Source: a bacterium
GTDB taxonomy: Bacteria > Electryoneota > JAOADG01
Direction of reading: 5' to 3'
Length of the DNA: 64,000 nt
Assembly: GCA_963681965.1 (NCBI GenBank)
Contig: OY820579.1
Span: 2,256,835 to 2,320,834 of the forward strand
Shown here: positions 27,678 through 43,396 of the stretch, piece after piece
Position numbering within the stretch: the stretch's first letter is position 1
Layout of the letters: every line of letters begins with the position of its first letter
The notes under the pieces: generated by a model
What the model was told of the DNA's origin: nothing
Seen by the model: the letters and a program-made list of their open reading frames with translations, nothing else
The model's database searches: none
Position numbers and translations under genes: made by a program

Positions 27678-30600
27678 TTACTTCATGAACACCACTTTAC
27701 GCGTGGTCTTGAAGTTGTCGGCGGTAATCATCACGTAATACACGCCGCTGGCGTTGCCGCTGGCATTCCAATGCAGAGTATAGGTTCCGGCATCGAGGTT
27801 CCCTTGCGATAATACTGCTACTTCGCGACCGGTTTGATCGAACACCTTCGCCGAAACAAAACCGCTCTTCGGAACACTCAGTTTCATCGTCATCGAGGGA
27901 TTGAACGGATTCGGATACGCTTCCGAAACCACGTAATCCTTCGGTAACATCTGGGTCGCCGGTTGATCGACACCAGTGAATCCATCGGGAGTTTGCGTAC
28001 TGAATCGGATGATGTGGTTGTTGTGCAACTCTTCCGCACCCGGAGATGCGACGTGTGCAAACAACAGATCCAAACCGTCGGTGTGTTCCCAATTCATGAT
28101 GCCCATCGTTGTGTAGTTGTTGGTCTGATCGACATCGGATGAAGTGTGATACTGGAAATCGATAATGTTGTCGCTCGATGGTCCACGACGATCGCCGTAA
28201 AGAATGATTTCGAATTTCTGTCGGATCGGATTCGTTTCAATACCGTACCGCGAATATGCTTCCGCCCATTCGATGATATATTTCCGATCGCCGGGGGTGT
28301 TGTCCATTCGATAGAACAATCGGACTCGACCGCTATCAGCCGGATTCGAACCCTTCAAGTCGTCCCAGTTCGCCGCAAGCAACGTGCGCGGTCCCTGAGA
28401 ATTCGGCAGCGTCCAGTTGTAGAAATCATACATCCAGGTGCTGTCGAAGCTGACCCAACCATTCGAACAAATCGACAAGAATTGATTGTAAGTCCGACCG
28501 TAGAATGTGAATGGGAACGGTATCGCTTGCACATACGTGGTATCGTCTTTCAGAATGAGCGAAGTCCCGTTACCGCCCAGTGCCGTATCCAATTCGATCC
28601 AGTTATAAGTCGGTGTCGGCCACGTTCCGGTCGACGGTACGTCGATCTCTTCGTAGGCGTAGTAGCCGTAATTGTCCGGTCCGGTCGGCATCGTGCTGGC
28701 ACGGGTTCCGCAAGTGATATTGAACCACGTGGTCAATGTATCCGAACCACCGATGATCCAATTCAACATCCGAATGGGAATGATGTGTCCGGGTAGAATG
28801 GATTGGGCGATTTCCGCATCGAATGCTACAAAACCGCTATCGCGAATCGCCATATAATACGCCGCCGGTGTCGTGATATTCATGCCATTCGAGAAGGTGA
28901 CAAACTGGTAGTTGCATGCCGGAATGGCAGCGTTACCCTCACTCTTGAGATGCACTTGAATTGTCGTCGAGCGGCTGACACCCGGTGTTAACGACCCACT
29001 CTCGACGACGATCCCGGAGATCCGCGGTAATGCCCAAGCGACTGGCATGGCGAAATCGACGGCACCCGAAGCGAACGTCAAGCGAAGCGATTCCGGTGTG
29101 CGATCTGCCAGGGATACGACTTTCACGCGATAAGTCAGGGATGTGGTAGCACCGGCATTCACCGTACCGGCATTGGAACTATTGTTGAGAATGACCAACC
29201 GGTTGCGCGTATTCGTTTGCGATAAAATCGCCTGCGAAGCGGCTGCGGTCGTTCCCACATTCTTGATTAAGATGTTGATATCGCCTTCGACACCCGGGCT
29301 GGGCAGTGTATTGGGAATATTGAAGAACACTGAATCGACCCGGAACTGACCAATCAAAGGATTATTAGTTTGAATGTAGTTGATAACTGGACGGTAGTTA
29401 CCGCCGCGAACCGCGATTCTAACGGTATCGTTTGCGACGATCCGCAATGGTAACGTGGCATATCCTTGAGCATCAGTAAGCGAGACTGCTGGATTAGCAC
29501 CAGCATTTCCGACGATCAGCGCTGCAACCATATTCGGCAAAGGATTACCTGTTCGCTGATCGACTGCGCGAATCGTCATCGAAGACGAAGCTGGATTCAA
29601 TGTCGTCGGGAATGTCACTTGCATCGTGTCAGGTGTTTTGTACCATAACGTCAATGACGGATCGCCAAGGATGTTGTAGAACCGGAAATATTGTTCGACT
29701 GCCGTCATCTCATTCGGGAAACCTTGATACACTTCCAATTTTCCGCGCAATGTTGCCGGACCCAGTTTATTGAGACCGTCATTCAGCCAGCCGTGCAGCA
29801 ATCCAGCCAGAATTGGGTTGTTATAGCGTGTGCTGGTATGCAAGTGGGCTGCACCGAAGAAAGCCGGACCGCATTTCGGTACACTTGGCGAACCGGTTTC
29901 AACCCATGCTTCGCCGAAGCATTGGTTGCCGTCGACTTGCGAATTTAATGCGGCATACCGACCATTCTGACAGACGATCGATAGCATTACTGCATCGTTT
30001 CTGGTGACATTAGCCAAGTCACCTCGCTGTAATCGAGGGTAGAGTGGACCTTGGCTATCGCCCCAGCCGCGATAAGTGATTAGCGAAACACCTTGATTGA
30101 TTAACGCAAGAATCGAATCAGTACCTGGTGCCGGTTGCATCGGATAAAGATAGGTACTGACATTGTAACCAAAGTCACGCAACATCTGTGCTGCCCAACG
30201 GGTATTTTCCGTGGGAGTGATCGGTGGGCTACCCGTGTCGGAATAGTTGCCGGCGAAGCAGAATGCTTTATTCATGTAATTCGTATTCGCTGGGTTTCCA
30301 GTTCCGGGGGAATTTTGATGTTGTTGTGTTTTGTTCACGATCGTAGCAAGTCCTGTAGTAGAACCATAGGAGATTCTACCCAGAAATGCTTCCGGCCAGA
30401 AGTCAGAACCATCCAGCAATACATAATTCAAGTCGGAAGGAACCGTTTCCGCTGCCGAAACGGTAAACGGAAACGTCGGGACATTGTCCAATCGGTCGGC
30501 ATCGCCGATAATCGCGACATATTCGACTGGAAGCGTATGTGCCAACGAATTGTAGACATCGGCTATCAACAATTTGATCTGGTCGCCATTGGCTCCGGAC

Positions 30601-31391
30601 GGAATCAAGATCGTAGCGACATTATATCCTTCCATTTTCTTCAAATTGGTAAACGTGAGAAGTTGCGAATTATAAGACGCTGAGGAAGGACGCACGATCA
30701 CGTAAGTACCCGGTCGCCACAACAGGGATCGTCCCATCGAGAATGGGTTATAACCCAAAAACATCGTTTCATAGATCCCGTGATAGGATGGTGTGATCGG
30801 ACCGGTTAATGTCGGTCCTGCTACAGTCGCAGTCAACGTGATCGTTAGTTCGCTGATCGCTTCGATGGTGCCGTCGGATAGTTGGCGCAACGGATACACG
30901 GTCACCGGAACGACGCCGAAATCCTTGAAGACACCCGGTTCGCCGACAGTCACGCGCGGCATCTCGCTGGATTTCGCCAACGGGGTGTTGGGGAATTCCG
31001 GATCGCTGGCGATCGCAACTGCGCCGCCGAGTCGGTCCGTCGTGATATGTTCCGTACGTCCGGCAACGACACTGGCAGTCGCTTTCACCGCAAAATTGAA
31101 GGGGACGAATACGGTCACGCCGGAAATATCGGGGGTACCTAATTTCGGAAACGCTTCGTGTTGTCCACCAACGCGAAGAGCAACGCCGTTGGTCGCTTTC
31201 TCAACCGCGAAGCCATTCAACTTCACTGTGAAAGTGACCGTGGTTGCGCTGCGATTGAGTTGATCGACGTTGGGGGATGGGGTGCCGACTGCCGCGGATG
31301 ACGCTGCATCGGACAGCCAGACGGTTTGCACGGGAGCAGCAAATGCGCCGAGTGCAACGATTAACAGGATCGAAAGAAGTAACCTTCTCAT
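27678..31391 (-). CDS. Peptidase C25 (gingipain-like) family secreted protein with T9SS C-terminal sorting domain
   Basis: Signal peptide; C25-like core around YVAIIGDADRL and the later region with conserved His and Cys; C-terminal KVFDQTGREV...GVYYVMITADNFKTTRKVVFMK. Confidence 0.6.
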   Translation of the reverse strand: MRRLLLSILLIVALGAFAAPVQTVWLSDAASSAAVGTPSPNVDQLNRSATTVTFTVKLNGFAVEKATNGVALRVGGQHEAFPKLGTPDISGVTVFVPFNFAVKATASVVAGRTEHITTDRLGGAVAIASDPEFPNTPLAKSSEMPRVTVGEPGVFKDFGVVPVTVYPLRQLSDGTIEAISELTITLTATVAGPTLTGPITPSYHGIYETMFLGYNPFSMGRSLLWRPGTYVIVRPSSASYNSQLLTFTNLKKMEGYNVATILIPSGANGDQIKLLIADVYNSLAHTLPVEYVAIIGDADRLDNVPTFPFTVSAAETVPSDLNYVLLDGSDFWPEAFLGRISYGSTTGLATIVNKTQQHQNSPGTGNPANTNYMNKAFCFAGNYSDTGSPPITPTENTRWAAQMLRDFGYNVSTYLYPMQPAPGTDSILALINQGVSLITYRGWGDSQGPLYPRLQRGDLANVTRNDAVMLSIVCQNGRYAALNSQVDGNQCFGEAWVETGSPSVPKCGPAFFGAAHLHTSTRYNNPILAGLLHGWLNDGLNKLGPATLRGKLEVYQGFPNEMTAVEQYFRFYNILGDPSLTLWYKTPDTMQVTFPTTLNPASSSMTIRAVDQRTGNPLPNMVAALIVGNAGANPAVSLTDAQGYATLPLRIVANDTVRIAVRGGNYRPVINYIQTNNPLIGQFRVDSVFFNIPNTLPSPGVEGDINILIKNVGTTAAASQAILSQTNTRNRLVILNNSSNAGTVNAGATTSLTYRVKVVSLADRTPESLRLTFASGAVDFAMPVAWALPRISGIVVESGSLTPGVSRSTTIQVHLKSEGNAAIPACNYQFVTFSNGMNITTPAAYYMAIRDSGFVAFDAEIAQSILPGHIIPIRMLNWIIGGSDTLTTWFNITCGTRASTMPTGPDNYGYYAYEEIDVPSTGTWPTPTYNWIELDTALGGNGTSLILKDDTTYVQAIPFPFTFYGRTYNQFLSICSNGWVSFDSTWMYDFYNWTLPNSQGPRTLLAANWDDLKGSNPADSGRVRLFYRMDNTPGDRKYIIEWAEAYSRYGIETNPIRQKFEIILYGDRRGPSSDNIIDFQYHTSSDVDQTNNYTTMGIMNWEHTDGLDLLFAHVASPGAEELHNNHIIRFSTQTPDGFTGVDQPATQMLPKDYVVSEAYPNPFNPSMTMKLSVPKSGFVSAKVFDQTGREVAVLSQGNLDAGTYTLHWNASGNASGVYYVMITADNFKTTRKVVFMK

Positions 31392-32217
31392 CGGTGTTTC
31401 CTCCTCTTGGTGAACAGTCCCGGTATGAAACGAAAACTTCCGACAAAAAAACGCAAGCCGAAAATCAATCCGCTCAGTCGATCCGGGGGCAGCGGTTGCA
31501 CCTGTTTATGATCTCGCCACTGTAGCCGCGAAAGTTTCGAGAGAATCTCAATACTACAGTTACAATATGCATTCAAAGCCGGATAAAAGCAATATGCAAC
31601 AACGATTGCGAATGAAAATCAATCTTGATAACACATTTGCACACAACTTCCCAGAAGTGATTACTATTTATACAGATATTAGCTACTTACCGGAGGTAAA
31701 GGATGCTCTCTGCAGATGATCGGTTGATTTGTCGTTGCGAGGACTGCAGCGAAGGAACATGCGAAGCATTTCCGAAGCGGAAGGACGAAGCAATCTATCT
31801 TGAATCCTGTTTTCTCTAGTAGGGGTGGGTCCCCGCGCCCGCCCGTTCTTGTATCTTTATTTCTCTTTTCCCAATCCCCAATGCCTATTTCTCCATCACC
31901 CATTCTATGCGTCAGGCGCTGCCTGCCGCTTGGGGCGAATGCGATTCGCCCCTACGGAAAAAACGCGGACTAAAGTCCGCCGCTACCATGATGAATTGTC
32001 AGGCTGAAGCCTAACTTCCGATTTCAAGAGACAGATACACCGAACCTGCGATTCGCTTCCTTTCCGTAGGTCAGAACTTGTTCTGACCATTTCTTGTATT
32101 TTTTTTCTCTTTTCCCACCACCTACAACCCACTACCCACCACCCGTTTGGTTGATTTGTCGTTGCGAGGACTGCAGCGAAGGAACATGCGAAGCATTACC
32201 TCAGTTTCTTCCCGACG
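31392..32217. repeat. REP-like hairpin cluster
   Basis: Two copies of the ~70-nt cgttgcgagg element, gtaggggtgggtccccgcgcccgcccg, ccgtaggggcgaatcgcattcgcccc (reverse), gcggactaaagtccgccgctacc, gtaggtcagaacttgttctgacc. Confidence 0.75.
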
Positions 32218-33017
32218 GTGCATCTCTCCTACAAATTGAGCAAACTAAATGAATTGCAATTGAGTTACAGTCGGCGCGTGCGGCGACCGGATGGTGAGGA
32301 TTTGAATCCATTCCCGGAATATCGCGATCCGTTGAATGTCTGGGCGGGAAATCCGAAACTGTTGCCGGAATATGTGAATGTGCTGGAACTCGGTTGTCAA
32401 TATCTGAATGGCGGATTGATGTTGGTACCGGCGCTGTTCTACCGCAACACGAATAATCGCTTTACCCGGGTCACGCAGACACTGCACGATTCGATCGTCT
32501 TGACGACCATGGAAAATCTGGCTTCCGATCAATCCGGCGGTATCGAATTGAATGTGTCGTGGAATCATCAGAAATCGTTTTCGCTTCACGGATACAGTAG
32601 TGTGTTTTTCGATCAGATCGATGCCACCAATCTTAACAATACAATGGAAAGAAGAATGTTACGACGTGGACCAGCAATATCACGATGGATGTCAATTTGA
32701 CCGAGACCAGCCGGTTTCAACTCAACTCGAATTACAATTCGGCACGATTGACGGCGCAAGGGAAAAACAAACCGTCGTATTCGCTCAATTCCGGTTTTCG
32801 ACAAGAATTGTTTGAAGGAAAATTGACGATCACTGCGACCGTCACGGATATCTTCAAGACGATGAAACGGGAATTCGAGTTGAATATCCCGACGCTGCAG
32901 CAAACATCGGTGAATAAGCGCGACTCGCGCGTAATGTACGTCGGATTGAATTATCGCTTCGGTTCGCAGAAGAAGAAAGCGAAAGAAGACCAGATTAAAT
33001 ACGATGACGGGTTGTAG
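32218..33017 (+). pseudogene. Remnant of an outer-membrane beta-barrel protein gene (C-terminal ~265 codons, frameshifted)
   Basis: No signal peptide or N-terminal domain; reading frame switches near 32650-32700 between track ORFs 32218-32700 and 32685-33017; ends with beta-barrel-like ...YVGLNYRFG; 5' side abuts the repeat cluster. Confidence 0.45.
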
Positions 33018-33040
33018 AATAGATCGCCGTAAAATGTATA

Positions 33041-33068
33041 CGGGCGCTTTGCAGCGCCCGTTTTTTTT
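33041..33068 (+). terminator. Rho-independent terminator
   Basis: cgggcgctttgcagcgcccg hairpin followed by an 8-T run. Confidence 0.6.
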
Positions 33069-33134
33069 GTGTTTCTTACACTCGTTCGAATTTCGTGGTG
33101 AAGTGCCGCAGGATCGGTGGTTCGTAGGTGGTCC
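33068..33134. repeat. Left direct repeat: diverged duplicate of the tnaA 3' end (putative att remnant)
   Basis: gtgtttcttacactcgttcgaatttcgtggtgaagtgccgcaggatcggtggttcgtaggtggtcc is ~92% identical to 36341-36405; on the minus strand it still encodes ...TYEPPILRHFTTKFERV-stop. Confidence 0.7.
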
Positions 33135-33201
33135 TTAAAAGCTAGTTCAACATTCGAACTTAGAATATCAATTAATTGATTGCTAGATAATCTGAATTGG
33201 A

Positions 33202-34011
33202 TTAAATGTAAGGATCGTCCAATTTGCAGTAACTAGCATCAAGAATATTGGCTTTACAACAATAATTCATTAACCAAGTTACATGTTCTTCATCGATGGG
33301 TGGGATATCCTTCTTGAACAAAACGGCTCGATCCAATCTTCCGATCCACTCTCGCGCTTTAGTTACTAATTGAACCTCGATGATACGCGATTCTTGGATC
33401 ATAATTAAAAAATGGATAGCACGATAATTAGTGTCGTGGGAGTACAATTTCGGATTGAAATAATAATTTCTGCATCGATAAATTTTTCGATAAAAGTCAC
33501 GCCATATTTTTACTCCTAATTGCGCAAGTTCGTTAGGAGTCTGGACGACTATTCGAAATCGAACCAAGTCCCAAATATCGTATAAATATTCAGGATAATA
33601 CCCTAACCGTTTTCGTTTCTCAATCGATTTTGCGATTGATTCATCTGATTTCAAGTTACCAAATAAATGTTCGAGCGGAACTTGCGATTTCTCGATATAA
33701 TCAAGTAACACGAGTCGGGAAAAGTCAAAGACTTTCTGTTTCTCATTTTTATCCATCACAAAATCAGACCAGTCAGCGATATTTTGACTAATTCGAAAGC
33801 CTGTTTCCGGGATAACTATTAACTTTCTAGATAATAGATCTACTGACTGATCGTGAAGCAATTGAAAATTGGGATCTGCTGAGTTTGTTCCATTCTCAAT
33901 TTTATTGCCTAACTCTAAAAATTCGGTTCGATCTTTGTCAGAAAGTGAGCACCAGAATTGTTTGAACCATTTGTCATGGCACTCGCAGTATTCGATATGT
34001 CTTTGTAACAT
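33202..34011 (-). CDS. RelA/SpoT-like (RSH/small alarmone synthetase-like) nucleotidyltransferase-fold protein
   Basis: Ordered motifs with RelQ-like spacing: SIAKSIEKRKR, DIWDLVRFRIVV, NYRAIHFLIMI, IEVQLVTKAREW...LFK. By-eye match, not HMM-verified. Confidence 0.5.
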   Translation of the reverse strand: MLQRHIEYCECHDKWFKQFWCSLSDKDRTEFLELGNKIENGTNSADPNFQLLHDQSVDLLSRKLIVIPETGFRISQNIADWSDFVMDKNEKQKVFDFSRLVLLDYIEKSQVPLEHLFGNLKSDESIAKSIEKRKRLGYYPEYLYDIWDLVRFRIVVQTPNELAQLGVKIWRDFYRKIYRCRNYYFNPKLYSHDTNYRAIHFLIMIQESRIIEVQLVTKAREWIGRLDRAVLFKKDIPPIDEEHVTWLMNYCCKANILDASYCKLDDPYI

Positions 34012-34031
34012 TGAGCACTCAAAATTATTAA

Positions 34032-34652
34032 TTACGAGAAATAGATATCATTCTTTGCAAATGTTGATCGAACAGAGTCCTTTCTCTCAACAACAGCAAT
34101 TTTTTTTCCTTTCTTATGAAGTAATAGAAATTCTTTGTTTACTAAATCTTTAATGCGATAATACATTTCACTCGGATTTTGAACTTTGTCAACTTGCCAT
34201 CTCTGAAAATTCGTAAATAAATCTTCAAGAGTGATCTGATCTAATGAATACTCGTATATAAATTCAATTATCTTTTTCTGAGTAAAAGATAATTTTCTAT
34301 AAGAATCCACTAATTTCAGTTCTTGATCTGCAACACTAGGAGCACTCTCGATGGGTATTTTAGATACTGATGTAACAGAATAAAGCGAATATTCGTTAGG
34401 TTTTTGTTTTAAATTAGATTTATGTGAAAGATATGTGAACAAAATCACGAAAAATAATCCAATTAATAATTCAAACACACCTATAAATACTATTAACCCA
34501 TTTGGGTGAGCACGATAAATTATATTATTTGTTTGATTATGCCATTCGAAAATTCCTAATAAAATCATAACTGTTCCACCAAGAACAAATATTGCATCGA
34601 TTCTTGCCTTAAAAAGACTTTTTAAAAGTTCGAACATAATGATCCCTTTCAA
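34032..34652 (-). CDS. Membrane protein: two N-terminal TM helices plus ~110-aa C-terminal winged-helix-like domain (paralog 1)
   Basis: Shares with the next gene the pattern ELLK..KA..D.I.VL.G..M.LLGIFEW..Q.NNII.R.HP and a C-terminal block ...YYRIKDL...G..IAV.E. Confidence 0.55.
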   Translation of the reverse strand: MKGIIMFELLKSLFKARIDAIFVLGGTVMILLGIFEWHNQTNNIIYRAHPNGLIVFIGVFELLIGLFFVILFTYLSHKSNLKQKPNEYSLYSVTSVSKIPIESAPSVADQELKLVDSYRKLSFTQKKIIEFIYEYSLDQITLEDLFTNFQRWQVDKVQNPSEMYYRIKDLVNKEFLLLHKKGKKIAVVERKDSVRSTFAKNDIYFS

Positions 34653-34703
34653 AATAATAAATTAGAGATTAATCGCTTTAAATTGAAATGAATTACCGGT
34701 TAA

Positions 34704-35249
34704 TTAAGAGCACAATATATTCTTTTTTTCCAAAGTTAACTGAACAAAACCAATTTTCTCAATGACAGCTATATTTCTTCCAATATTATGAAGATTAATG
34801 AAACCATTATATTTTAGATCTTTAATTCTATAATAAAATTCGTTTTTGTTTTGAATAATTCCAGGTCTCCAGGCTTGAAAACCATCGAAAAGCACTTCGA
34901 GAGAAATTTCATTTAATAAATGTTGGTAAATAAATTGTACAATCAGCATTTGTGTTAATGTTAAATTGTGATAAGATAAGACTAACTGTTCTTCATAGTC
35001 TCGTTTAGGACTTGCCATCTCCGAATGAACTCTCTGTTGAATATAGAAATTAATAATATAGAGTGAAATACCAATTAATGTTAACAGAATCCCAATAAAA
35101 ATGACAAAACTATGAGGATGTGTTCGAATAATAATGTTATTTAATTGACCATTCCATTCAAAAATACCAAGCAGCAACATCGAAGAACCAACAAGCACTA
35201 AGATGACATCAACTTTTGCTTTAAGAACGCCTTTAAGTAGTTCTAGCAT
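34704..35249 (-). CDS. Membrane protein: two N-terminal TM helices plus C-terminal winged-helix-like domain (paralog 2)
   Basis: Paralog of 34032-34652; start overlaps the stop of the upstream NTase gene (35243-35249). Confidence 0.55.
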   Translation of the reverse strand: MLELLKGVLKAKVDVILVLVGSSMLLLGIFEWNGQLNNIIIRTHPHSFVIFIGILLTLIGISLYIINFYIQQRVHSEMASPKRDYEEQLVLSYHNLTLTQMLIVQFIYQHLLNEISLEVLFDGFQAWRPGIIQNKNEFYYRIKDLKYNGFINLHNIGRNIAVIEKIGFVQLTLEKKNILCS

Positions 35250-36130
35250 GATAAAGCTCGTCTTGGAAGAGAAATATGATTTTTTTCGATAAGTACAATT
35301 TGAGTACTAAATTTTATCTTTACTCTTATAGCGCAATCGGCTGAAAAGCAATTTGGGTGGTTGCCCTTAGTCGACTCAAATAAAAGAATATTTTCTTTCA
35401 TATGAATTGGAAGCGATGATTGTAATGGCATTTGATAATAATTTTGGACGTACTCCTTCATACAACAAAAATAAAAATAGTATGCTGTGGCTTGTTGAAT
35501 CGGTAGAGTGCTGACTTGCAGTGAATCAATAATTTTGTGTTCTTTTAACCACCAATCACATAAAACAAGAAACTCGTAATCAACCAATCCCCCAGCACCG
35601 CTTTTAAAATCCCAATAATGTGGCGATTTTGGGTCGTCGTATTCATCGCTGCGATGTGGGTTTCCGAGGAAGAATCTGTGCAAATTATCGAATGAAGTAT
35701 TTTTCAACCAATACTTGAATTTACTAATAAATTCTTGGTAGATCGACTGGTTTCCTGCAAGAAATCGAAGGTGAGGAAAAGAGACAAGTAATGGAAAAGA
35801 GTAGGTGTCGATTGCTTTATCGAGAGAATTAATGATGAAATGCGTTGGATGATTTGGTGTGTATCGTTTAAGTAGCGATTTTATCAAATCGCGATCAATG
35901 TTTGGTGATCGATAAAGAACGAAGAAATCAATATCGGAAAACTGATTTGGATGACCGCGAGCGTAGCTTCCCCTTAAACAGATAGCAAAAGTTTGATTAT
36001 TCAAAAATGAAGAAATATGCTCTTCGGAAAGATAGGCGTGAAGTTGTTCAACTCGTTTTAAGAATTTCTCTTGATATGTCAGCGATAATTTTAAGAATGT
36101 TGTCGGGTTGTTTGTGATAAACATAAACAA
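35243..36130 (-). CDS. Nucleotidyltransferase with Pol-beta-type motif and GlnD/GlnE-like second motif
   Basis: GSYARGHPNQFSDIDFFVL (GS-x10-DxD) and ~120 aa later DFKSGAGGLVDYEF, resembling the GlnD/GlnE uridylyl/adenylyl-transferase signature. Confidence 0.55.
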   Translation of the reverse strand: MFMFITNNPTTFLKLSLTYQEKFLKRVEQLHAYLSEEHISSFLNNQTFAICLRGSYARGHPNQFSDIDFFVLYRSPNIDRDLIKSLLKRYTPNHPTHFIINSLDKAIDTYSFPLLVSFPHLRFLAGNQSIYQEFISKFKYWLKNTSFDNLHRFFLGNPHRSDEYDDPKSPHYWDFKSGAGGLVDYEFLVLCDWWLKEHKIIDSLQVSTLPIQQATAYYFYFCCMKEYVQNYYQMPLQSSLPIHMKENILLFESTKGNHPNCFSADCAIRVKIKFSTQIVLIEKNHISLPRRALSC

Positions 36131-36300
36131 TACCTATGCAAACTTCATTCGATCACAGTAGTAAAAAAATCCATAAATAGTTTCTTCATGAGGCAATTAG
36201 TATTCTTGTAAAGATAATAATAAACTAAACAAATTCAAAATGGTATTTGGTAAAATATAAACAATCAACTTACATGTTGACGAGATATCTAAAAAATAAT

Positions 36301-36320
36301 TCCGGTAAAACTATACCGGA
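36301..36320 (-). terminator. Candidate terminator for tnaA lying inside the island
   Basis: Hairpin ccggtaaaactataccgg immediately 3' of the tnaA stop, followed on the minus strand by a T-rich run. Confidence 0.4.
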
Positions 36321-36338
36321 ATTATCAATTAAGTTAAA

Positions 36339-36405
36339 TTGTGTTTCTTACACCCGTTCGAATTTTGTGGTGAAGTGCCGCAGGATCGGCGGTTCGTAAG
36401 TGATC
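36339..36405. repeat. Right direct repeat: functional 3' end of tnaA
   Basis: gtgtttcttacacccgttcgaattttgtggtgaagtgccgcaggatcggcggttcgtaagtgatcc; encodes ...ITYEPPILRHFTTKFERV-stop in frame with tnaA. Confidence 0.7.
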
Positions 36406-37715
36406 CGCAGACCTTTGATTTTGTGAGCGCGATCTTTCAACTTCTTCATCCCGTCGGCAACAAATTCGAGATGCGAATTCGTGTATGCGCGTCGCGGAAC
36501 GCAAAGCCTTAGCAATTCCAATTTCGGATAGCGGTTTTCGCGGGTTACCGGATCGCGATCCGCCAGTACCGTGCCAATTTCCACACCACGGACACCCGCC
36601 TCGATATAGGCTTCCACGCCCAGCACCTGCGCCGGGAACGCTTCGCGCGGAATATTCGGCAACAATTTCAAGGCATCGACGTAGATCGCATGTCCACCTG
36701 CCGGCTGTACGATCGGAATGCCGCGTTCCAACAAGAGATCGCCGAAATATTTCACCTGAGCCAACCGGAATTCGAGGTAATCTTCTTCAACACCTTCGCG
36801 TAGACCGACCGCCAATGCTTCCAAGTCGCGTCCCGATTGACCGCCGTACGTCACGAACCCTTCAAACAGAATTCCGAAAATCGAGCACTGACGATACAGC
36901 TCTTCGTCGCGACAGGCAATAAAGCCACCGATATTCACCAGCGCGTCCTTCTTCGAGGACATCGTGCAACCATCTGCCATGGAAAATAGTTCGAGGGCAA
37001 TTTCTTTGACCGATTTCTGTGAATATCCATTTTCGCGCTGTTGAATGAATTTGCAATTTTCGGCATAGCGCGCGGCATCGATGAATAATTTCACGTCATA
37101 CTTGTCGCACAAGGCTTTCACGGCACGGGCATTTTCCATCGAGACTGGTTGTCCGCCGGTGCTGTTACAGGTAACCGTGAGTAATACGAAGGGAATTAAT
37201 TTCTTCGGAGCATATTCCTGCAAAACCGATTCCAGTTTTTTCAGGCAGACATTCCCTTTGAACGGATGGATCAGCTCCGGATCGAAAGCGTTGTCGTCGG
37301 TGCAGTCGATCGCGTGCGCTTTGCGATATTCGATGTGTCCTTTGGTCGTATCGAAATGCGAATTGCCGGGAATGACTTCTCCTTCGTGAACCAATACACT
37401 ATGCAGTACGTTTTCGGCAGCACGCCCTTGGTGGGTGGGGAGGACGAAGGGAAAACCCATGATATCCTGAACCGCTTTTTGGAAATTGTAGAATGAGCGC
37501 GCACCGGCATACGATTCGTCGCCCATCATCAACGCTGCCCACTGCGCATTCGACATCGCGCCGGTACCACTGTCCGAGAGCATATCGATGAAGACATCTT
37601 CCGAATGCAAGCCAAATAGATTGTAGCCGGTTTCCTTGATTTTTTGTTCCCGCTCGTCGCGCGGCAGGAGCCGGATCGGCTCAATCATCTTGATTCGGTA
37701 GGGTTCTGGAAACAT
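36348..37715 (-). CDS. tnaA: Tryptophanase / beta-eliminating lyase family (PLP-dependent)
   Basis: PLP-lysine motif SSKKDALVNIGGF; overall TnaA/TPL-like sequence; start set to MFPEPYRIKMIEP. Confidence 0.85.
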   Translation of the reverse strand: MFPEPYRIKMIEPIRLLPRDEREQKIKETGYNLFGLHSEDVFIDMLSDSGTGAMSNAQWAALMMGDESYAGARSFYNFQKAVQDIMGFPFVLPTHQGRAAENVLHSVLVHEGEVIPGNSHFDTTKGHIEYRKAHAIDCTDDNAFDPELIHPFKGNVCLKKLESVLQEYAPKKLIPFVLLTVTCNSTGGQPVSMENARAVKALCDKYDVKLFIDAARYAENCKFIQQRENGYSQKSVKEIALELFSMADGCTMSSKKDALVNIGGFIACRDEELYRQCSIFGILFEGFVTYGGQSGRDLEALAVGLREGVEEDYLEFRLAQVKYFGDLLLERGIPIVQPAGGHAIYVDALKLLPNIPREAFPAQVLGVEAYIEAGVRGVEIGTVLADRDPVTRENRYPKLELLRLCVPRRAYTNSHLEFVADGMKKLKDRAHKIKGLRITYEPPILRHFTTKFERV

Positions 37716-37916
37716 CGTAACTCCGTTCAATAGTACTTCCCAGCGACACCTTCTTACCGAAAAATCCCGGAAGAAAGTGGTGAAACTTGGTTGATTCGCA
37801 GTATCCGGCAGCGAACTGACATTGTCCGGCAACCTGCCGGGTAAAATATAACCTCGAAAACCGCGATTCCGAAAAGTTTGTTTTTTATCGAAATACCTTT
37901 GAGTTTGCGATACCGA

Positions 37917-43314: not shown

Positions 43315-43396
<82 letters not shown>

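Follow-up and report, generated by a model that had tools for sequence, protein, structure and literature searches.

To our knowledge, all nucleotidyltransferases (NTases) of the GlnE/GlnD/DrrA class that have been characterised biochemically attach AMP or UMP to a target protein at a tyrosine: GlnE modifies glutamine synthetase at Tyr397, GlnD modifies PII at Tyr51, and DrrA/SidM, a Legionella effector, AMPylates Rab1 at Tyr77. In MntA-HepT (MNT-HEPN) modules, the toxin is AMPylated on a tyrosine by its partner, a minimal NTase. Here we analyse a 64,000-nucleotide stretch (hereafter the window) of contig OY820579.1 (assembly GCA_963681965.1), from a bacterium of the lineage Electryoneota, which carries a GlnE/GlnD/DrrA-class NTase in an AT-rich island of four co-directional genes, together with two paralogous putative effector genes (A and B) and a RelA/SpoT-like synthetase homologue. 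We propose that the NTase serves as one subunit of a conflict cassette, hitherto undescribed and moved by horizontal transfer, whose most likely function is abortive infection or anti-phage defence, and assign this reading a probability of roughly 0.55.

The NTase of the island differs from GlnE and GlnD in both architecture and setting. It is a single 295-aa domain without the HD and ACT domains of GlnD or the second nucleotidyltransferase (NT) domain of GlnE, it scores far below the cut-offs of the curated hidden Markov models (HMMs; 10–17 bits vs 519–799), and it has no nitrogen-regulation context, lying instead on a foreign AT-rich insertion with effectors that carry TIR or transmembrane (TM) domains and with the alarmone-synthetase homologue. 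DrrA, with which it shares about 10% sequence identity, is a secreted multidomain virulence factor (GEF and P4M domains) acting on a eukaryotic GTPase, whereas the likely partners of the NTase are encoded in the same operon. MntA-HepT is similar in that a Pol-beta NTase lies directly upstream of, and is coupled to, a toxic partner; transfer of a nucleoside monophosphate (NMP) to protein as the control step is the interpretation that we would favour here.

The fourth gene of the island recalls the toxSAS/CapRel systems: it encodes a small alarmone synthetase homologue that stands alone, retains its synthetase motifs and belongs to a compact mobile operon. The toxSAS partners described so far are small antitoxins, small alarmone hydrolases (SAH) or a fused antitoxin domain, and the toxSAS survey mentions neither NTase nor TIR partners (PMC7229694). 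The cassette differs in that the described partners include no GlnE-class NTase and no TIR or TM-winged-helix (TM-WH) effector, and in that its synthetase family has its own N-terminal extension of about 110 aa. With CBASS, Pycsar, Panoptes and Hailong the cassette shares the combination of nucleotide-handling enzymes with an effector whose TIR or TM domain is exchanged over a constant C-terminal domain. On the other hand, this constant domain is a winged helix rather than a SAVED, STING, CARF or cNMP-binding domain, and the enzymes are of the GlnE and RelA/SpoT classes rather than a CD-NTase, cyclase, mCpol or HalB. The cassette would be a conflict system of the nucleotide-enzyme plus TIR/TM effector kind, assembled from enzyme classes and a receiver domain that are new in that role.

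The NTase and its two conserved motifs

The gene and its motifs lie as follows:

35243–36130, minus strand: GlnE/GlnD/DrrA-class nucleotidyltransferase, 295 aa from TTG 36130
35921–35971, minus strand: motif 1, Pol-beta catalytic, GSYARGHPNQFSDIDFF, residues 54–70 (G54-S55...S65-D66-x-D68), (near-)invariant in 45 family members
35570–35611, minus strand: motif 2, DFKSGAGGLVDYEF, residues 174–187 (D-F-K176-S-G178-A-G180-G-L-V-D184-Y-E186-F), common to GlnD and GlnE

The probable start is ATG 36124, two codons after TTG 36130, which gives the 293 aa of the public gene call for the identical protein P0001. An earlier note, made from the sequence of this DNA alone, had described the open reading frame (ORF) as a minimal Pol-beta NTase with a second motif of GlnD/GlnE type about 120 residues after the first. 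Both elements were borne out. Pfam NTP_transf_2 matches the protein at 28.3 bits against a gathering threshold of 21, and the motif has the form hG[GS]-x9-13-Dh[DE]h, which places the protein in the Pol-beta superfamily; GSYARGHPNQFSDIDFF and DFKSGAGGLVDYEF are exactly 120 residues apart, and the latter reads K-x-G-x-GG-x-x-D-x-EF. This agrees with the second motif of the class, K-x-G-x-GG-(L/I)-x-(D/E) at about 110–120 residues after DxD, with K176, G178, G180, G181 and D184 conserved.

An alignment of 45 family members gives the consensus RGSYARGD..SDxD ... LRFxxG ... DPxSPH....KRGxGGxxDxEF ... PWFF. In motif 1, D68 is present in all 45 sequences and G54, S55, S65 and D66 in 44 each; in motif 2, G178 is kept in 44, K176 and G180 in 42 each and G181 in 37, while position 184 is Asp or Glu in 41 and position 186 is Glu, Gln or Asp in 42. 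Between the motifs, G126 is kept in 43. Because the two motifs are the most conserved stretches of the alignment, we regard them as selected features of a real and very rare family and not as chance strings, and the conservation of motif 1 argues that the active site is under selection.

The rarity is pronounced. An exhaustive HMMER scan of 1.84 billion cluster representatives with the NTase recovered 48 proteins at E ≤ 1e-3, most of them of 250–320 aa, so that the family amounts to about 50 representatives in this set. A word-indexed search of 5.8 billion proteins matched nothing beyond the NTase itself and, when run with a 46-sequence family alignment, only the NTase and P0047. A scan of GTDB genomes with the single NTase protein returned one weak and unrelated NTase (L009). 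Owing to this rarity the family has small ecological weight, and its interest is mechanistic.

Structural class of the NTase

Plain sequence searches detect just the GS..DxD segment of the NTase (NTP_transf_2, ANT(4') 4ebj, MNT, HalB and PDC-S09). The top plain sequence match in the PDB, ANT(4') 4ebj, covers residues 47–79, within a GS..DxD segment of 33–47 residues, and the matches to MNT, HalB and PDC-S09 are weak. Across both motifs, phmmer reaches the full-length GlnD proteins P0062 (860 aa) and P0063 (898 aa), its two weakest hits, which contain HD and ACT regions and the sequences KNGKGGLRDYH and KQGVGGLRDLQ, to which motif 2 of the NTase aligns. A comparison of the NTase family with P0062/P0063 by hhalign gave a probability of 98.4% and an E-value of 5.8e-15 over 184 columns, pairing GS..DxD, LRFxxG with SRFICG, and K-G-GG-D; since these GlnD sequences had been retrieved with the query, this comparison is partly circular, and the structure-based result is independent of it. 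Several family members also show sub-threshold Pfam matches to DUF294, GlnD_UR_UTase and GlnE.

An AlphaFold2 model of the NTase, built from the 45-sequence alignment, reached a pLDDT of 90.2 and a pTM of 0.89. It presents a Pol-beta core followed by a helical domain, and its overall fold is nearest to GlnE and DrrA. In the structure comparison MNT (8.5), kanamycin NTase (8.0) and HalB (6.3) trail by a wide gap. The Foldseek ranking agrees (E-values of 3e-6, 1e-5 and 3e-4; TM-scores of 0.43–0.49), while ANT, LinB and AadA are matched at TM-scores of about 0.27. The earlier note had expected an enzyme other than an aminoglycoside NTase and had named HMM and structure comparison as the means to check this; the outcome that would have refuted it, best matches to aminoglycoside or lincosamide NTases and no conservation of the second motif, did not occur.

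More specific assignments were considered and rejected. An orthologue of GlnD would have about 850–900 aa with NT, HD and two ACT domains, as opposed to the single NT domain of 295 aa found here, and the curated models score 11.6 against 519.4 (TIGR01693) and 16.5 against 799 (PRK00227). An orthologue of GlnE would have two tandem NT domains in about 950 aa, and PRK14108 gives 9.8 bits against 724. With the aminoglycoside and lincosamide NTases (ANT(4'), AadA, LinB) there is no full-length similarity that includes the C-terminal substrate-binding domain. The MNT/MntA antitoxins are about 100–140 aa long, their HMM scores 18.3 against 60, and the NTase has a GlnE-type helical domain; as to a HEPN-MNT module, its neighbours are 2TM-WH proteins and the alarmone-synthetase homologue, with no HEPN. 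Neither a match to the models nor the closest fold supports a CD-NTase of CBASS or the HalB of Hailong. The GlnE/GlnD fold also gains a minimal stand-alone form of 280–300 aa, which could help to dissect that catalytic domain.

Effector and synthetase genes

The three genes that follow the NTase in the island are:

34704–35249, minus strand: effector paralog A, 181 aa, two N-terminal TM helices (about residues 11–31 and 45–70) and a C-terminal winged helix
34032–34652, minus strand: effector paralog B, 206 aa from TTG (201 aa from ATG 34637, the public gene call), 2TM plus winged helix, effC HMM
33202–34011, minus strand: RelA/SpoT-like small alarmone synthetase homologue, 269 aa, Pfam RelA_SpoT 32.1 bits (cut-off 27)

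Paralogs A and B are 41% identical (BLASTP 2e-50), so that the 2TM-WH effector is duplicated within the window. The description of the two as membrane paralogs in the earlier note is correct as far as it goes: they are paralogous TM proteins, and what it missed is their C-terminal winged helix and their nature as effectors. In related loci the N-terminal part is exchanged. A TIR domain (Pfam TIR_2, E 1e-8 to 7e-15), in which the glutamate of S..C..EY is conserved, is found in L005, L007, L014, L017, L020, L021 and the fusion protein P0019, and two hydrophobic helices are found in both paralogs of the window and in L003, L013, L022, L035 and L037. Every form carries one common C-terminal domain of about 95 residues, predicted to be a winged helix in a structure model built from a 3-sequence alignment. 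Its invariant residues are, in the numbering of paralog A, T99, Q100, Y108, E137, R141 and L145.

The NTase is closely tied to the effector. Its stop codon TAG (35245–35243) and the ATG of paralog A (35249–35247) share the string ATGCTAG, an overlap of 7 nt; that the two genes overlap had been noticed before and taken to imply coupled translation. Overlaps of 1–7 nt between the two genes are kept in the window, L003, L005, L007, L035 and L037, and in P0019 (619 aa, NTase-TIR-WH) and P0051 the NTase and a TIR effector are fused into one protein; the coupling is therefore confirmed as a conserved trait, and in the fusions it is absolute. In L010, the P0019 fusion is followed by a 269-aa synthetase gene. 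In L035 (5864–6325) the TM-WH effector beside the NTase P0018 ends at 153 aa, just past the L-P-x-T-Q start of the winged helix; this shortened effector is either a frameshifted pseudogene or an assembly error.

The fourth gene belongs to the RelA/SpoT synthetase family, scoring above the Pfam cut-off and having all synthetase motifs. Among 16 sequences, that is, this protein and 15 relatives at 26–35% identity, K121, S125, D145, D148, R151 and R153 are (near-)invariant, as are YRxxH (YRAIH, 196–200), E212-x-Q214, H228 and K233; judged from this conservation, the synthetase motifs are intact. The family profile matches RelP/YwaC and RelQ structures at E-values of 1e-5 to 5e-5. Some more distant relatives stand in other surroundings. 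In L025 (580–5936) and L031 (961–5777), two unrelated contigs, distant RelA/SpoT-like genes lie downstream of genes for sigma-54-type response-regulator/AAA+ activators, a context that points to another role for this synthetase family, one under transcriptional control. In L018, fragments of an insertion sequence (IS)-type transposase lie immediately upstream of such a homologue.

A conserved triad across loci

We collected loci from the genomic context of the synthetase relatives and from a scan of JGI metagenomes with the synthetase alignment, and annotated every locus with an HMM for each of the three families; in all, about 15 metagenomic loci underlie the census. As a reciprocal test, we inspected the context of four NTase family members (P0017, P0018, P0024 and P0037). 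The gene order NTase, effector, RelA/SpoT-like synthetase occurs in at least 12 distinct complete triads, with 3 partial ones. From the synthetase side these are the window, L003, L005 (the same as L006/L012), L007, L010 (the same as L011), L013, L014 (the same as L015/L036), L020, L021 and L022, and the short contigs L004, L008, L016 and L017 carry the effector-synthetase pair. The loci found from the NTase side are L034 (partial), L035, L036 and L037. Here, after P0017 the contig ends in a TIR gene, P0018 precedes a truncated TM-WH gene and a 269-aa synthetase, and P0037 precedes a TM-WH gene and the start of a synthetase; P0024 is the NTase of the L014 triad. On these data we are highly confident that a GlnE-class NTase forms part of a conserved triad.

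The genes on either side of the triad are unrelated and differ between loci (UvrB, a radical SAM enzyme, Usp, an M20 peptidase and a molybdopterin oxidoreductase, all housekeeping), and the triad is therefore a self-contained cassette. In L003 (339–8474, a forest-soil contig) the element that houses it also encodes a tyrosine integrase, a Phage_CRI replication protein and an excisionase-like HTH_17 protein. There, a gene for a caspase-like Peptidase_C14 (530 aa) directly precedes the cassette with a gap of 45 nt, and could be an additional effector. As for the window itself, the motifs, the gene overlap and the island that the earlier note had recognised all stand; the RelA/SpoT-like fourth gene and the conserved cassette had escaped it.

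The island as an insertion

Base composition supports the earlier designation of the locus as an island: 33135–36338 (3.2 kb) has 32.2% GC, against 49.6% and 50.9% on the two flanks, or about 50% on either side. Its borders are marked by the following features:

36339–36406, unstranded: direct-repeat copy 1, the working 3' end of a Beta_elim_lyase gene (36348–37832, minus strand), encoding a protein end in LRITYEPPILRHFTTKFERV before the stop
33067–33134, unstranded: direct-repeat copy 2, an orphaned duplicate of the lyase 3' end at the other island border, encoding LRTTYEPPILRHFTTKFERV before the stop
36295–36326, minus strand: island-borne terminator-like hairpin, directly after the lyase stop codon
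33040–33061, unstranded: GC-rich bidirectional terminator-like hairpin, after the orphaned lyase remnant

The two repeat copies are 68 nt long and 93% identical, and the differences in their coding part are synonymous except for one. Judging by its layout, the repeat pattern is the footprint of a site-specific integration into the 3' end of a gene. Copy 2 is presumably the original gene end and the hairpin at 33040–33061 the original lyase terminator, while the hairpin at 36295–36326 is a replacement terminator brought by the island. No integrase or transposase was found within the 3.2-kb insert, which looks like a non-autonomous integrative islet. The sole Rfam match in the whole window is a tRNA gene (43315–43396, minus strand); this gene lies away from the island, which therefore did not integrate at a tRNA. 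The same arrangement is present in a 4.34-Mb ENA assembly and in a Logan contig. Taken together, the low-GC insertion with its flanking repeat, the integrase-bearing element of L003 and the differing flanks argue that the cassette is horizontally mobile.

Proposed function and alternative explanations

Interchangeable TIR and TM domains are the usual executioners of abortive-infection systems, and for this reason we read the cassette as an abortive-infection-type conflict module. Taken by itself, a conflict or defence function of the cassette is probable. How the NTase would act in it is more tentative. We favour protein nucleotidylylation, because every characterised close relative transfers NMP to a protein tyrosine, and regard NMPylation of the effector as a possible though far from assured role of the enzyme. 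The NTase would then act on a protein hydroxyl and not on an antibiotic; its likeliest target would be the effector winged helix, with the invariant Y108 as one candidate acceptor, or possibly the synthetase. NMPylation would gate the TIR or TM effector, and the (p)ppNpp-type nucleotide made by the synthetase would add a further regulatory input or, as with toxSAS enzymes, a second toxic output. Infection would shift this balance, upon which the effector may deplete NAD+ or permeabilise the membrane.

Several observations weigh against this proposal. Pol-beta-fold enzymes also include pure nucleotide-signal synthases, and the fold class does not in itself prove a protein substrate for the NTase. 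We know of no winged helix that serves as a nucleotide receptor, and ordinary DNA binding accounts just as well for the invariant residues of the effector domain; Y108, which lies in helix 2, is also compatible with an ordinary winged helix-turn-helix (wHTH) core. The tyrosine of the E-L-x-Y-R helix of the effector had to be rejected as a universal NMP acceptor, the corresponding residues being FFR in L017 and YHR in L014. PADLOC-DB v2 contains no model matching the effectors or the synthetase, and the NTase has only weak PDC-S09 matches in the P-loop region. The mostly housekeeping flanking genes lend no support to a defence-island setting, relatives are absent among IMG/VR viral contigs and PLSDB plasmids, and the more distant synthetase homologues L018 and L023–L033 have neither an NTase nor an effector partner. 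A search of PHROGs gave no match for the NTase, paralog A or the synthetase, and only weak ones for paralog B (holin, E 0.026).

A different logic, that of CBASS, Pycsar and Panoptes, would have the NTase and/or the RelA/SpoT-like enzyme make a diffusible nucleotide, for example a pyrophosphorylated or NMP-extended one, which the effector winged helix reads; the signal could be activating, as in CBASS, or inhibitory until a phage interferes, as in Hailong and Panoptes. The hallmark of signal-activated effectors is a killing domain, here TIR or TM, that varies over one constant C-terminal domain, the cassette has two nucleotide-handling enzymes with intact active sites, and HalB and CdnC are among the weak structural matches of the NTase. 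However, an amplifying signal synthase would be a poorer fit to the stoichiometric coupling and even fusion of NTase and effector than a pair of enzyme and substrate or of antitoxin and toxin, as in MntA-HepT, and we consider a second messenger, the main rival of our reading, rather doubtful. The compact operon with overlapping genes on a small AT-rich insertion, and the weak sequence and structure matches of the NTase to MNT antitoxins, would also suit a toxSAS-type toxin-antitoxin (TA) or addiction module that stabilises a mobile element instead of protecting against phage, with the RelA/SpoT-like and/or TIR/TM protein as toxin and the NTase as an antitoxin acting by NMPylation as in MntA-HepT. 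Small alarmone synthetases, which the synthetase resembles, include TA toxins, some of them in three-gene operons (PMC7229694). We hold such an addiction module to be improbable.

An antibiotic-resistance NTase of the ANT(4'), LinB or AadA type, or a housekeeping GlnD/GlnE paralogue in nitrogen control, could be suspected from the ANT(4') 4ebj match, confined as it is to the GS..DxD segment, and from the JGI annotation of one family member as a PII uridylyltransferase. Both are effectively refuted: the ANT(4')-II model scores 19.8 bits against a cut-off of 350 and the GlnD model TIGR01693 falls short as given above; ANT, LinB and AadA are far weaker structure matches than GlnE and DrrA; and the NTase lacks HD, ACT and tandem NT domains, has no PII or glutamine synthetase neighbour, and, on its AT-rich foreign insertion as elsewhere, is always linked to TIR/TM effectors and the alarmone-synthetase homologue.

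For the abortive-infection reading, a more specific form is conceivable, in which a GlnE-type nucleotidylyltransferase and an alarmone-type pyrophosphokinase jointly control TIR or pore-forming effectors through a winged-helix receiver; as a new immune module of this kind, whether as NMPylation switch or in messenger form, the proposal is speculative. It could operate as a switch based on reversible NMPylation of tyrosine, resembling the GlnD-PII-GlnE cascade in miniature but put to use for cell suicide, or it could rely on a so far unknown nucleotide messenger, decorated with NMP or pyrophosphate, that the two enzymes produce one after the other. Full-text literature searches returned no published cassette of NTase, TIR/TM-WH effector and RelA/SpoT-like synthetase, although an earlier in-silico mention in the literature on nucleotide-centric conflict systems is possible. 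If the cassette does serve in defence or abortive infection, GlnE/DrrA-type AMPylases or UMPylases, as well as stand-alone alarmone synthetases working with a separate effector, would be new to phage defence, and the winged helix would be a new receiver domain for TIR and TM effectors. The cassette would then be a compact system in which one could test how NADase or membrane effectors are controlled, be it by protein nucleotidylylation or by a new nucleotide messenger.

Neighbouring features

Beside the island, an OMP_b-brl_3/TonB-receptor-like gene without its N-terminal part is represented by the overlapping ORFs 32218–32700 and 32685–33017 (plus strand). The adjoining non-coding stretch contains a direct repeat of 52 nt (31722–31773 and 32149–32200; 98% identical, 427 nt apart) and an 18-nt repeat (31856–31873 and 32100–32117), and a small repeat element has probably disrupted the gene, leaving a pseudogene. 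Proteins with a Por_Secre_tail domain, for sorting by the type IX secretion system (T9SS), are encoded near the island and suggest a host in the Bacteroidota or a related phylum. The best such clue to the lineage in the window is 27678–31391 (minus strand), some 2 kb away from the island, which encodes a gingipain-like Peptidase_C25 of 1237 aa with this domain.

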